The notes beneath the pieces are model-generated. The model had not been told where the DNA came from. It worked only from the letters and a program-made list of their open reading frames with translations, and did no database searches. A program made the position numbers and the translations under genes. From a virus (lineage: Duplodnaviria; Heunggongvirae; Uroviricota; Caudoviricetes): 38,348 nucleotides of DNA. Positions 14,782 to 38,348 of this stretch are shown in pieces; the first letter of the stretch is position 1, and each line of letters begins with the position of its first letter. Location: IMG/VR virus record IMGVR_UViG_2609459797_000003; one strand, 5' to 3'.

Positions 14782-14978
14782 TTATGTTAAGTGTATTTTA
14801 TTATGTGTCAAAAAGTTTAGTCATCTCTGCTTAATGTATAATCGTGAATGTTTTTATTCAGATTTTATGCATGTCAAGTTGATGAGTGCCGTCGACATAA
14901 GATATGGGGATAATGAATAGTTTACAATCGTAAATAATAGAATATCCTGTTAAAAGTGGTTACTTCTCCACGCAGCTT

Positions 14979-29621: not shown

Positions 29622-30152
29622 ATGAAAGGCTATATCACAGCAAGTGTAATTCTTGGAGCAGCGGCTATTTTTTCATCTCTCATAATCTCTGGCAACATCT
29701 CCTTTAAAGATGAACATATTATTCAGTTATCTGGAGGAGCCATAAAACTTGGTGATGTTTATAAAGAAAATAAATTGATAAGTGCAAAGATTATTTTTCC
29801 AGATAATCAGGGTGAACAGATTCTTGTTGTCGACGGCAATCCTGAAAACTTTAAGGAGGATTTTCAGGAGAAATTAAATAAAGTAATAAAAACTTTAAAT
29901 GCGTCAAAGAAAAAAGATGAAGAGAAAGTTAGCCTGGATAATTTAAGTGTTATTGAAGAGTCTAAACTAGAGCTCGTTTCTGCGGTGCGTTACTCTGCTC
30001 AGTATGTTCCTATGTTTACTCTGACGCTGGACAAAAAAGAAATTACCATGCCTAAAAATACGGTAATATTTCCATTTGCCAGCGATGAAACAGCTAAGTA
30101 TTTAAATGAACAACAGCAAAAGTATAAAGATTCGTTGTTTCTGACCCGCTAA
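29622..30152 (+). CDS. AT-rich moron: secreted or membrane-anchored protein of unknown function
   Basis: 176 aa; N-terminal 'MKGYITASVILGAAAIFSSLIISG' signal or anchor; Lys/Asn/Glu-rich; flanked by its own promoter-like sequence and terminator. Confidence 0.55.
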   Translation: MKGYITASVILGAAAIFSSLIISGNISFKDEHIIQLSGGAIKLGDVYKENKLISAKIIFPDNQGEQILVVDGNPENFKEDFQEKLNKVIKTLNASKKKDEEKVSLDNLSVIEESKLELVSAVRYSAQYVPMFTLTLDKKEITMPKNTVIFPFASDETAKYLNEQQQKYKDSLFLTR

Positions 30153-33166: not shown

Positions 33167-33591
33167 TGGAACTGTGGCTGACGGTGAACGGTAAACGCAC
33201 CTGCGCCAGCGCACCGCTGGATCCGCTGACCCGCGCCGTGGTGATTTCCCTGTTTACCTGGCGGCGGGCGGAGCCTGATGACAACGCCGACGTCCCGATG
33301 GGATGGTGGGGGGATACCTGGCCTGCGGTACAGAATGACCGTTACGGCTCCCGACTGTGGCTGCTTCAGCGCAGCAAACTGACCAATCAGCTGGTGCAGA
33401 CGGTAAGGGGGTATATCCGCGAATGCCTGCAATGGATGACTGATGACGGCGTGGTGTCCCGTATTGATCTGGATATCCGCCGCACCGGGATTAATGAACT
33501 GGGTAACAGTATCACTCTCTGGCGTCGTGACGGACCGGTAATGATTTCTTTTGATGATCTGTGGAGTGCGATAACGCATGGCGGACAGTGA
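33163..33591 (+). CDS. baseplate protein (Mu gp46-like)
   Basis: 142 aa; ATGA coupling; position between gpV and baseplate J. Confidence 0.65.
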   Translation: MMELWLTVNGKRTCASAPLDPLTRAVVISLFTWRRAEPDDNADVPMGWWGDTWPAVQNDRYGSRLWLLQRSKLTNQLVQTVRGYIRECLQWMTDDGVVSRIDLDIRRTGINELGNSITLWRRDGPVMISFDDLWSAITHGGQ

Positions 33592-34636
33592 ATTTCAGCG
33601 CCCGACGCTGGCAGAAAATATCAGTATGCTCCGTAACGATTTATTCGCCAGGCTGGACGTCAGCGACACGCTCCGGCGCATGGATGAAGACGTGCGGGCA
33701 AAGGTGTATGCGGCGGCGCTGCATACGGTTTACGGGTACATCGATTATCTGGCAATGAACATGCTGCCTGACCTGTGCGATGAGTCCTGGCTGGCGCGAC
33801 ATGCTGCGATGAAACGGTGTCCGCGCAAGGGGGCCACGGCTGCCAGCGGGTATATGCGCTGGGAAGGTGTCAGCGATGGCCTGAAGGTGACCGCCGGGAG
33901 TGTTATTCAGCGCGATGACCTGGTTCAGTACACGGCAACTGCCGATGCAACCAGCTCCAGTGGTGTCCTGCGCGTGCCGATCGCCTGCTCAAGTGCAGGC
34001 GCGGTCGGTAACGCTGACGACGGTACGTCATTAATCCTGGTCACGCCGGTGAATGGTCTGCCGTCTTCCGGCGTGGCAGATACCCTGACAGGTGGATTTG
34101 ATACTGAAGAGCTGGAAACGTGGCGCGCCCGCGTCATTGAGCGGTATTACTGGACGCCTCAGGGCGGGGCTGACGGGGACTATGTCGTCTGGGCTAAAGA
34201 AGTGCCCGGCATTACCCGCGCATGGACATACCGTCACTGGATGGGAACGGGAACTGTCGGTGTGATGATTGCCAGCAGTGACCTGATTAATCCCATTCCG
34301 GAAGAATCAACGGAAACGGCAGCAAGACAACATATCGGGCCACTGGCCCCGGTGGCAGGCTCTGATTTGTATGTATTCAGGCCGGTGGCACATACGGTGG
34401 ATTTTCATATCCGCGTGACGCCGGACACACCGGAAATACGGGCTGCCATTACCGCGGAGTTGCGTTCGTTCCTGCTGCGTGATGGTTATCCGCAGGGAGA
34501 ACTGAAGGTATCGCGTATCAGTGAGGCGATTTCCGGTGCGAACGGGGAATACAGCCATCAGTTGCTTGCACCGGTGGACAATATCTCCATTGCAAAAAAT
34601 GAACTGGCGGTACTGGGGACGATTTCATGGACGTGA
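33578..34636 (+). CDS. baseplate J-like protein (Mu gp47-like)
   Basis: 352 aa; conserved order after gp46. Confidence 0.8.
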
Positions 34637-35211
34637 CAAACGATGATTATATCCGTCTGTTGTCGGCACTGTTGCCGCCCGGTCCGGCGTGGTCAGTCAG
34701 CGATCCGGCGATTGCCGGTGCGGCACCGTCATTAACCCGCGTTCATCAGCGTGCGGATGCCCTGATGCGGGAGCTGGATCCGCGCACCACCACTGAACTG
34801 ATAAACCGCTGGGAGCGTCTGTGCGGTCTGCCGGATGAATGTATTCCCGCAGGGACACAGACCCTTCGCCAGCGTCAGCAACGGCTGGATGCGAAGGTTA
34901 ATCTGGCGGGCGGCATCAATGAGGATTTTTATCTTGCACAGCTTGCTGCCCTGGGCAGACCAGACGCCACTATCACGCGATACGATAAAAGCACGTTCAC
35001 CTGCTCATCGGCCTGTACTGACGCAGTGAATGCGCCGGAATGGCGTTATTACTGGCAGGTCAACATGCCAGCCGCCACCAACACCACCTGGATGACATGT
35101 GGCGATCCCTGTGATTCCGCACTGCGTATCTGGGGCGACACCGTTGTCGAGTGCGTGCTTAACAAACTCTGCCCTTCGCATACCTACGTAATTTTTAAAT
35201 ATCCGGAGTAA
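34627..35211 (+). CDS. tail protein, Mu gp48-like (YmfQ-like)
   Basis: 194 aa; precedes the tail fibre as in Mu-like tails and e14. Confidence 0.65.
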
Positions 35212-35214
35212 TCC

Positions 35215-35952
35215 ATGCATCGTATAGACACGAAAACCGCGCAGAAGGATAAGTTCGGCGCGGGTAAGAACGGTTTTACCCGTGGTAACCCCCAGACCGG
35301 CACGCCTGCCACCGATCTGGATGATGACTACTTTGACATGTTGCAGGAGGAGCTTTGCAGCGTTGTGGAGGCGTCCGGTGCCAGCCTGGATAAGGGGCGG
35401 CACGACCAGCTACTTACCGCGCTTCGCGCGCTGCTGTTAAGCCGCAAGAATCCGTTTGGCGATATCAAATCGGATGGCACGGTGAAAACGGCTCTCGAAA
35501 ACCTTGGATTAACCAACGCGATAATTGGTGATACCTGTAAAGAAGCAGGGTTCTACTTAGGAAGTGAACTTGCCCCTTATCTTATGCATGAGGACACTCA
35601 CACAGCCATCCGCCTGGTAACGTTGGATAGCGTCCGTCGAGTAACAACCACTACTTACACTATTAATTATTACGCGAATGGCTTAATTCAGATTTTAGGT
35701 ATGACCCCAACAGTAAGCTCTTTGACTCCCCAGACCATGACATTCCCAGTGGCGTTCCCAAATGCTTGTGTTCGGTTTGCATTGCACAACCAAGAAAGTG
35801 GCGTCCCATCCTACAACATGGCGATGTATTCTAATTTAAGCAGAACGGGCGTGAAGATATGGGGAGTGGCGAACATTCTTGGCAACGGTGGAAGCCCGTC
35901 GCTGGGCGCGCTACCGAACGCTGAAATCTCTTATGAAGCATGGGGTTACTGA
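35215..35952 (+). CDS. tail fibre protein (constant N-terminus + invertible variable C-terminus)
   Basis: 'MHRIDTKTAQKDKFGAGKNGFTRGNPQTGTPATDLDDDYFDMLQEEL' is the conserved tail-fibre N-terminus; composition becomes AT-richer after ~aa 97, where a hix/gix-like site lies. Confidence 0.75.
   Translation: MHRIDTKTAQKDKFGAGKNGFTRGNPQTGTPATDLDDDYFDMLQEELCSVVEASGASLDKGRHDQLLTALRALLLSRKNPFGDIKSDGTVKTALENLGLTNAIIGDTCKEAGFYLGSELAPYLMHEDTHTAIRLVTLDSVRRVTTTTYTINYYANGLIQILGMTPTVSSLTPQTMTFPVAFPNACVRFALHNQESGVPSYNMAMYSNLSRTGVKIWGVANILGNGGSPSLGALPNAEISYEAWGY
35492..35516. promoter_or_regulatory. candidate invertase crossover site (hix/gix/pix-like) inside tail-fibre gene
   Basis: 'CTCTCGAAAACCttGGATTAACCAA': left half-site matches the hixL half 'TTCTTGAAAACC' at 10 of 12 positions as I recall it, right half partially; at the constant/variable boundary. 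Confidence 0.45.
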
Positions 35953-35953
35953 T

Positions 35954-36391
35954 ATGACATTTTTCTACAGTGCAGCACATAATATTTTTGTTTCAGATAT
36001 TAACAAAGAGAGCTATGAGGATGCTGGATCGTGGCCAGCAGATGCAAAAGAAGTTTCAGATGAATTATTTTATCAATATTCGCAAAATCCACCGAAAGGC
36101 AAAATTCGCTCCCATGCAGATGGCCTGCCCATCTGGGAAGATGCCCCGCCTATGACTGAAGAAGAACTTATTCTGAAAAATAAGAATGAAAAACAAATTC
36201 GTATCGATGAAGCCAATAATTATATGCACGGTAAGCAATGGCCAGGTAAAGCGGCTATTGGTCGTCTGAAAGGTGAGGAACTGGCGCAATATAATTTGTG
36301 GCTGGATTATCTGGACGCACTGGAGCTGGTCGATACTTCCGGTGCGCCAGATATTGAATGGCCTACGCCTCCGGCAGTTCAGGCCAGATGA
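35954..36391 (+). CDS. tail fibre assembly protein (Tfa)
   Basis: 145 aa; C-terminal 'LWLDYLDALELVDTSGAPDIEWPTP' is the conserved Tfa C-terminus. Confidence 0.75.
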   Translation: MTFFYSAAHNIFVSDINKESYEDAGSWPADAKEVSDELFYQYSQNPPKGKIRSHADGLPIWEDAPPMTEEELILKNKNEKQIRIDEANNYMHGKQWPGKAAIGRLKGEELAQYNLWLDYLDALELVDTSGAPDIEWPTPPAVQAR

Positions 36392-36956
36392 CATCCGGCG
36401 CGGTGCTGGTATCTGTTACCGTCACCGCGTCAATGTAATCCAGCACGGCGTTAAGTCGGGTTGTTTCTGCCTGAGTCAGCTTCCGTCCGGCCTGTAATTT
36501 CAGTTGAATCAGACTGATGGAAGCCATTGCAGCATCAATCAGCGACTGGCGCTGTGCTTCTGCTGCGTCTACTGCGGCACTATGCTGTGCCTCAGTATCT
36601 GTCACCCATTTCTCACCATCCCATTTATCGTATGGCGTTAACGGTGAAAGCGTGACATAACCGTCTTTGATGGCACCGATATAATCCACTGTAACAGCTG
36701 CGCCATTTTCGATTGAGTAAACAGTCTCATTGCGGTGGTCTTCTTCATGGCGCCATCCCTTACCCGTAAATACTGCCACTTTCCCCGGAATGTATTCGCC
36801 CGGGTCAATACCAGTGGAACAGGCGGGCATACTTACGCCAGTATTAATATATTCATCAGACCAGCCCGTATACTCAGATGTTTCAGCATCATAATAAAAA
36901 CAACGCATATCGCCCGGCACTGTAGCCAGCCCATTTTCATCAAAAACAGGTTTCAT
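36363..36956 (-). CDS. alternate tail fibre assembly protein (Tfa', inverted orientation)
   Basis: 197 aa; C-terminal 'LNAVLDYIDAVTVTDTSTAPDVIWPELP' matches the same Tfa motif; convergent with and overlapping tfa by ~29 nt, as in Mu G / e14 P segments. Confidence 0.75.
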   Translation of the reverse strand: MKPVFDENGLATVPGDMRCFYYDAETSEYTGWSDEYINTGVSMPACSTGIDPGEYIPGKVAVFTGKGWRHEEDHRNETVYSIENGAAVTVDYIGAIKDGYVTLSPLTPYDKWDGEKWVTDTEAQHSAAVDAAEAQRQSLIDAAMASISLIQLKLQAGRKLTQAETTRLNAVLDYIDAVTVTDTSTAPDVIWPELPEA

Positions 36957-37389
36957 TATTTAGCCCTCACCAGAAAGTTAAATGCAATATTTCGCGGTCT
37001 GACAGCAACAAAATTCACACCATCACCCACAGAGTTACTGGTGAAATTAAATCGTGAAAATCCTGGCTGATTTCCGGCGATGCCATCATGAAAGTTAATT
37101 GCGTGTCCCGCACCTCCGCCTATATTCCCGGCAAACTGAGAAAAGTTTGTAGCTTCCTGCCAGCTTAATAATTCGCGACCACCATCGGCACCTCGCCCGT
37201 CATCCCAGATACGAATGAAATCACCGCGGGCTTCAGGTAATACCAGTGAAGGAAACACTTTCGCCAGCACAGGGTAATCAGAGGCAGAAAATTTCGCCCC
37301 GTTGAACTTCAAAAACACCATACTGGACCAGCTGTCGATTACAGTATTTGGCATTGCAGCGGACGGCCAGAAGAACGGAACGCCAATAG
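36956..37389 (-). pseudogene. alternate tail-fibre variable exon, 5'-truncated by IS5
   Basis: Minus-strand frame upstream of Tfa' encodes a fibre-tip-like Gly-rich region; the frame runs without its own start into the IS5 terminal repeat at 37390. Confidence 0.6.

Positions 37390-38348
<959 letters not shown>

Follow-up and report, generated by a model that had tools for sequence, protein, structure and literature searches.

The question raised by this locus is whether a sequence inside a tail-fibre gene that resembles the crossover site of a DNA invertase belongs to a working host-range switch. The window, by which we mean the whole analysed stretch of 38,348 nucleotides, carries a prophage of the SfV/SfI/SfII/SfIV-like type at tRNA-Thr(CGT), with a Mu-like baseplate and a tyrosine integrase at its left end. 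An aldehyde-dehydrogenase-family gene (417 aa) opens the window, the tRNA gene is located at 1369-1444, and the integrase gene occupies 1459-2622 on the minus strand. The initial annotation had proposed a hix/gix-like site in the fibre gene and a host-range switch of the Mu G-segment kind. The explanation that we favour, with a high degree of confidence, is that the sequence is the fibre-side crossover site of a Din-family system, that the partner site and the invertase were lost with an IS5-associated deletion, and that this copy is locked in one orientation. The system is of a known kind, and its state is one of ordinary prophage decay.

Elsewhere in the prophage, a 176-aa ORF (29622-30152, plus strand) between the tape-measure and DNA-circularisation genes has a GC content of 34%, versus 51% for the window, and no Pfam match. 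The two flanking genes are adjacent, without this ORF, in the related loci L002 and L003, and the ORF looks like an inserted cargo gene.

The fibre locus and its crossover site

The fibre gene is preceded directly by a YmfQ/Mu gp48-like baseplate gene (34627..35211, plus strand; Pfam Phage_Mu_Gp48, E = 3e-26), in the ymfQ-fibre gene order of e14-like and SfV-like relatives. The expressed fibre gene itself (35215..35952, plus strand) is an intact ORF for 245 aa with a Pfam Gp53-like_C match at residues 154-244. Its codons 1-97 form a constant part (GC 0.56) that is fused to a forward variable part of lower GC (0.48), Sv (35506..35952, plus strand). The tail-fibre assembly (chaperone) gene for Sv follows at 35954..36391 (plus strand; Pfam Caudo_TAP, E = 1.3e-27). 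On the opposite strand are the assembly gene for an alternative variable part, now silent (36363..36956; Caudo_TAP, E = 1.1e-26), and a fragment of this alternative part, Sv' (36956..37389; weak Pfam Collar match). The convergent tfa/tfa' pair of the initial annotation is therefore real. Sv' has lost its first 8 codons, among them the inner half of the partner site, and the apparent start of the listed Sv' ORF (37459) is spurious, as it lies inside an IS5 element.

The ORFs and Pfam matches (Gp53-like_C, two Caudo_TAP, weak Collar) identify a two-C-terminus layout, with a constant N-terminus and two convergent variable parts that each have a chaperone. As judged from sequence, the locus is in this respect built like the invertible segments of the Mu G, P1 C or e14 P host-range switches.

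As a separate observation, the ymfQ-like stretch at 34612-35175 differs at 24-25 positions (about 4%) from that of most relatives with the IS5 junction described below, next to a fibre region that is almost identical. The relative L009 has the same ymfQ-like allele as the window. The stretch looks like a recombination patch.

The candidate site was originally reported at 35492-35516, where the quoted string is indeed present; the full 26-bp site extends to 35517 (35492..35517, no strand assigned) and has no partner. It consists of an outer half CTCTCGAAAACC (35492-35503), a TT core (35504-35505) and an inner half GGATTAACCAAC (35506-35517), the last being non-consensus and forming the first 12 bases of Sv. 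The core falls within codon 97 of the fibre ORF, and the site encodes ALENLGLTN. GC content drops across it from 0.58 (35300-35499) to 0.43 (35500-35699) in 200-bp windows, so its placement about 97 codons into the gene, at a shift to AT-rich sequence, was right.

The reported match of the left half to hixL at 10 of 12 positions is also correct against the published hixL, TTCTTGAAAACC AA GGTTTTTGATAA (PMC3241671 Table 3). A hix/gix-like label is to that extent justified, but pixL of e14 is a closer match than hix or gix. Published pixL is TTCTCCCAAACC AA GGTTTTCGAGAG, with the reverse complement CTCTCGAAAACC TT GGTTTGGGAGAA (PMC3241671 Table 3). Outer half and core of the window site are identical to this reverse complement at 14/14 positions, or 16/16 if the next GG is included, after which the sequences diverge.

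Scoring the two halves gave very different results. In a half-site matrix built from 19 distinct published halves, the outer half reached 14.4 bits and ranked at the top of the approximately 76,700 12-mers on either strand of the window, a score that is partly circular because the matrix includes pixL. The inner half scored -3.6 bits with the same matrix, a level that is reached by 7.7% of all 12-mers and that lies under all 19 published halves, the weakest of which is the left half of hixR with 0.8 bits. The outer half matches 6/7 consensus positions and the inner half 4/7, with a TT/AA core. It is thus one half only that appears to resemble the family consensus.

Motif statistics are not what supports the site. 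The loose motif TCTCNNAAACCNNGG, with one mismatch allowed, has one match versus 0.71 expected, which is not significant alone. The palindromic Din consensus with up to 3 mismatches has 2 matches in the window versus 2.09 expected, and misses the site itself. The case for the site rests instead on its exact identity to pixL and on its homologous position in relatives. Since functional Din-family sites can have one half at background level, scans with a consensus miss them. We therefore regard the window sequence, on comparative grounds, as a genuine site type of the Din family (Hin/Gin/Cin/Pin), because a site with the same inner half has been inverted between natural isolates, with breakpoints at the core (see below).

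Among described systems, the P segment of e14 (Pin, pixL/pixR) is the closest, ahead of the Mu G segment or hix. The likeness extends to the gene order (ymfQ, fibre, chaperone, reverse chaperone, reverse fibre part and then pinE, the last in intact relatives) and to the exact pixL-like and near-pixR sites of the intact relatives. The differences are that e14 is another prophage, whereas the window prophage is SfV-like and located at tRNA-Thr, that the inner half is GGATTAACCAAC in the window versus GGTTTGGGAGAA in pixL, and that the window has neither a partner site nor a pin gene. With the Mu G segment, the locus shares the constant N-terminus joined to one of two convergent C-termini, each with a chaperone gene, and the Mu-like baseplate genes upstream (gp45-gp48). 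In contrast to the window, with its TT/AA core and pix-type half, Mu has gix halves TTCCTGTAAACC and TTATCCAAAACC and a GA core (PMC3241671 Table 3); in addition, the window fibre is much shorter (245 aa) and there is no gin homologue in the window. The Hin system of Salmonella resembles the window in the left half of hixL (10/12), and its hixR shows that a site can be functional although one of its halves is very poor (0.8 bits). Hin differs in flipping a promoter of flagellin genes rather than a fibre coding segment, and the window site is nearer to pix than to hix. The initially proposed Mu G-like host-range switch thus holds for the architecture and for a site type that is inversion-competent in relatives, but e14 P is the closer model and this copy is not working.

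Intact relatives and natural inversion

The left sites of L002, L003 and L010 are homologous in position to the window site and align with it, and each is accompanied by an inverted partner and by a gene with Resolvase and HTH_7 domains. Such an invertase gene is present beside the segment in L002, L003, L006, L010 and L018. In L003, the site in the fibre gene is CTCTCGAAAACC TT GGTTTGGGAGAA, exactly pixL, and the partner, just upstream of pinE, is TTCTCCCAAACC AA CGTATATGAAAA, one mismatch away from pixR, and the situation in L002 is equivalent. This gene order, complete with the full switch, occurs in complete E. coli genomes, and it recurs in phage SKA5, where a DNA invertase is annotated. 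The P segment of e14 is known to invert at pix-type repeats, and PinE, PinQ and PinR all act on it in trans (PMC12529663).

The window is a mosaic, L010-like in its left and middle parts and L002-like on the right, and no relative with both of its variable modules was present among the intact relatives found. The ancestral arrangement is for these reasons a reconstruction.

On the right side, positions 36228-37389 are 98.0% identical to L002, up to the IS5 junction. Among 5,426 complete genomes, the Sv' module is fused in frame to a constant part in 38 and parked beside a pinE-type recombinase in 198, and flipping L002 in silico produces an in-frame fibre. On this evidence, the silent reverse-strand module can be taken as a real alternative C-terminus.

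On the forward side, Sv departs in the alignment from L002 and L003 directly after CTTGG. The complete 245-aa fibre protein was found in identical form in 237 blocks of a public assembly collection, while the Sv module is rare among complete E. coli genomes (7/5,426). The point at which it is joined is always the same, and at least five different N-terminal parts are found there. The partners of Sv are an SfV-like constant part (window, L001, L010), a constant part of the 243-aa class (L022-L025), a P2-like fibre that is followed by a Pin-like recombinase (L006), a pair of fibres from invertase-free phages whose baseplate is of the DUF2612 type (L004, L007), and a recombinase gene, next to which Sv forms a 154-aa orphan ORF (L005, L020). 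The inner half GGATTAACCAAC evidently belongs to the variable module and travels with it, as judged from these junctions.

Dozens of genomes matched one half only of each 600-bp junction query, with the matches ending no more than a few bases away from the crossover (query positions 293-307). These one-sided matches indicate that the constant part and the recombinase flank have each been joined to many variable modules exactly at the site. Existing annotations of such genes are inconsistent. The constant plus collar-type fibre is labelled 'integrase' in many RefSeq genomes (e.g. NZ_CP172212.1 1,895,318-1,896,067), and in L001 a fibre region that looks intact is split between two features, namely a partial StfP pseudogene and a 'gp53-like domain-containing protein'. 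Both the label and the split appear to be annotation errors.

The cleanest comparison for inversion is between L023 and L020, which agree in prophage backbone, in the 182-aa resolvase and in their chromosomal site beside yciI. The sites in L023 are CTCTCACAAACC TT GGATTAACCAAC and TTCTCCCAAACC AA CCTTTTTTATAA. Native L023 aligns to L020 in three pieces, with a 1,872-bp segment reversed and the breakpoints inside the two sites. After inversion of L023 in silico between the cores, a single alignment of 7,024 bp with 99.67% identity is obtained. Each of the two states was found once among complete genomes. L023 and L020 are, on this alignment, best described as one prophage in two states, and a site with the poor inner half GGATTAACCAAC has by the same token evidently recombined in nature. 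A second pair, L005 and L010, was considered as pure inversion isomers, which holds in part only, since the pair is mosaic and the constant side is 87% identical.

The yciI-adjacent prophage (L010, L020, L022-L024, L005) has the same variable module and inner half-site as the window. It differs in that the switch is intact, in the resolvase (L010 12280-12828; L020 3397-3945; L022-L024 6229-6777), which is about 51-55% identical to Pin-like invertases, and in the gene-side half-site TTATAAAAAAGG (5.6 bits). Action of a Pin-like enzyme on a site of the window type remains our inference, because of the low identity between the L023/L020 resolvase and such enzymes. L006 combines the same inner half with a Pin-like enzyme and was observed in one orientation. 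L010 has the identical 245-aa fibre and the identical left site as the window, plus a partner site and a resolvase.

These relatives also bear on an alternative, according to which the module junction merely coincides with a conserved stretch of coding sequence (ALENLGL), the module having come by homologous or illegitimate exchange and this particular left site never having served for inversion in this lineage. Phage SfV, with a fibre gene and a single chaperone gene (orf21/orf22), is an argument for it. SfV resembles the window in its backbone and constant fibre part (97.3% over window positions 33500-35507) and has a complete pixL-like site, CTCTCGAAAACC TT GGTTTGGGAGAA, at the same codon of its fibre gene (L019 5493-5518), yet there is no invertase and no alternative segment, and gtr genes follow its single chaperone gene. 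Because the SfV site persists as coding sequence without a switch, a site taken by itself is weak evidence of a switch. L004 and L007, which have the same module and junction without an invertase, the background level of the inner half, and the Gly-Leu codons after the core (GGA TTA versus GGT TTG in pixL, differing only synonymously, as for an old protein-level motif) point in the same direction. However, the window, in contrast to SfV, keeps a relic of the alternative segment, and an inverted chaperone gene with an alternative fibre part makes sense only within an invertible segment. Furthermore, the identical left site of L010 goes together with a partner site and a resolvase, and a site with the same inner half was inverted in nature. 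We consider the coding-motif explanation unlikely.

The IS5 junction and probable loss of the switch

Only one site was found in the window, instead of the two inverted 26-bp sites that bound an invertible segment. A repeat scan of 34600-38348 did not identify an inverted partner, and a search of the window for the pix inner half with core, at up to 3 mismatches, gave 5 matches versus 4.07 expected, none of them in the fibre region. No serine recombinase was detected in the window either (two Pin-like proteins in tblastn, best E = 6.5), its sole recombinase being the tyrosine integrase at 1459-2622. The initial annotation had itself named the lack of an inverted partner site and of a serine invertase as evidence against its proposal, and the claim of a working switch fails on both counts. 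With neither of them in the window, the site is evidence of a former switch and not of a working one.

The place where they would be expected is occupied by an IS5-family element (37390..38348, plus strand), with its left inverted repeat GGAAGGTGCGAAC starting at 37390 and the transposase ATG at 37460. The element is annotated as an IS5-like ISKpn26-family transposase in L001, and the window stops 959 bp into its 1,195 bp. Its left end at 37390 abuts ...CCAATAG. At the same point, L002 continues with CTGGAGCACC, then the partner site TTCTCCCAAACC AA GGTTTATGAAAA, and the recombinase gene about 60 bp later. The IS5 junction therefore falls, in comparison with L002, 10 bp short of the expected partner site.

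The sequence on the far side of IS5 is available from relatives that share the junction, namely L001 and nine further loci from ten assemblies (eight of them independent, plus one sampled twice, as L013 comes from the assembly of L001). In each of these, the IS5 element is flanked by AATAG on the left and TTAG CCTAG on the right, without a target duplication. The IS5 element of L003 shares this right-hand junction and is bounded by a proper TTAG duplication; it is located some 870 bp past pinE, and pinE and a small ORF precede it on the left. An invertase gene after IS5 was not found in any of the ten related assemblies, which have an AraC-family gene and attR there instead, and neither L009 nor the window contains sequence that matches the pinE region of L003. 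In L009, attR is a 46-bp repeat of the tRNA 3' end (14857-14902), about 1.5 kb beyond IS5. Because attR lies beyond them, the AraC-family regulator and an rve fragment are cargo genes of its right end, and the deletion lies entirely within the prophage.

Such flanks are characteristic of a deletion that runs outward from the left end of IS5, here over about 1.5 kb, the last step being read from the relatives, as the window ends inside IS5. The deletion could have come about by intramolecular transposition of IS5 or by recombination between two IS5 copies. From 34600 onward, only three positions distinguish L009 from the window, and the window genome therefore very probably continues past 38348 as L009 does. 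The two IS5 elements are the same except at 38246 and 38255. Compared with L001, the IS5 element of the window has 8 differences within 500 bp (37760-38255) next to an identical junction, and other relatives have other combinations, which suggests exchange between IS5 copies.

The relatives beyond IS5 also argue against a switch that still works. This alternative supposes a simple IS5 insertion in Sv', with partner site and invertase just beyond the window and a flipped segment that includes IS5. On this view, one would expect to find beyond IS5 an ATAG duplication, GCTGGAGCACC, a site of the pix type and the gene for an invertase. The window does stop 959 bp into IS5, leaving what is beyond unseen, and the 8 differences from the L001 element first pointed to a separate IS5 copy. 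However, the two flanks differ (ATAG left, TTAG right) in all ten related assemblies in which the left junction is identical, the right flank is that of the intact IS5 insertion in L003, and L009 carries the deletion together with the window-like IS5 (except 38246 and 38255). A simple insertion in a functional switch is accordingly very improbable. We also considered the window as a two-IS5 intermediate or a simple IS5 insertion, which is unlikely, as L009 has the deletion and nearly all IS5 variants of the window.

Both orientations were not seen at the window locus, as all eleven junction-carrying loci were in one orientation, a count that is biased by the retrieval of ten of them via the fused fibre protein.

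Together, the above observations are consistent with the following course of events under our preferred explanation, in which the former working of the switch is deduced from the family and from the intact relatives. A Pin-like serine invertase would have bound the fibre-side site together with an inverted partner positioned shortly before the invertase gene. By cleaving the two sites at the central dinucleotide, it would have turned round about 1.9 kb of DNA, and codons 1-97 would thereby have been joined alternately to the gp53-like part with its chaperone or to the collar-domain part with its chaperone. That the lost invertase was Pin-like is suggested by the Sv' fragment, which matches L002 up to the junction. 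According to PMC3798978, the Din mechanism involves Fis and a recombinational enhancer in cis, usually in the 5' part of the invertase gene. The IS5-associated deletion of about 1.5 kb would have taken the first 8 codons of Sv', the partner site, the invertase gene and the small ORF, and with them the enhancer, if this was inside the invertase gene. The surviving site was presumably kept because it is part of the fibre protein (ALENLGLTN). The present orientation would then be fixed, with the reverse-strand chaperone and fibre fragment as silent relics. Judging from the relatives beyond IS5, this copy of the prophage can almost certainly no longer leave its present host-range state.

Activity in trans and significance

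A lone site might still be a substrate for an invertase from elsewhere, with rare exchange with another prophage, large inversions or fibre-cassette swaps; PinQ, PinR and PinE do all invert the e14 P segment in trans (PMC12529663), and in NZ_CP104681.1, the nearest of the complete genomes, the orphan site (~3,796,400) occurs together with an intact same-inner-half system with resolvase (2,716,557-2,719,028), but no such rearrangement was seen in the eleven junction loci, which are colinear (fibre gene, IS5, AraC-family gene), and the need of Din invertases for two sites and an enhancer on one supercoiled domain, as set out in PMC3798978, disfavours recombination between sites about 1 Mb apart (here ~1.08 Mb), so that we regard this alternative as extremely unlikely.

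When the yciI system is flipped, both halves of the recombinase-side site (TTATAAAAAAGG TT GGATTAACCAAC) are poor, which might bias switching toward one direction in the intact relatives. The combined proposition that the orphan site is not inert, recombining in trans with a second prophage, and that the poor inner half biases the switch direction in intact relatives is unlikely. If true, it would lead to inversions of megabase size or to the exchange of fibre cassettes from one prophage to another.

Under the explanation that we prefer, a decayed pix-type switch, the fibre specificity of the window prophage is fixed, and the reverse-strand chaperone gene and fibre fragment are to be annotated as relics and not as a phase-variable locus. 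More generally, a crossover-like sequence in a fibre gene is no proof of a working switch, as illustrated by SfV, which has a better site and no switch. The module boundary is the crossover point in at least five fibre backbones, which fits the long-standing idea that such sites serve as points of cassette exchange.
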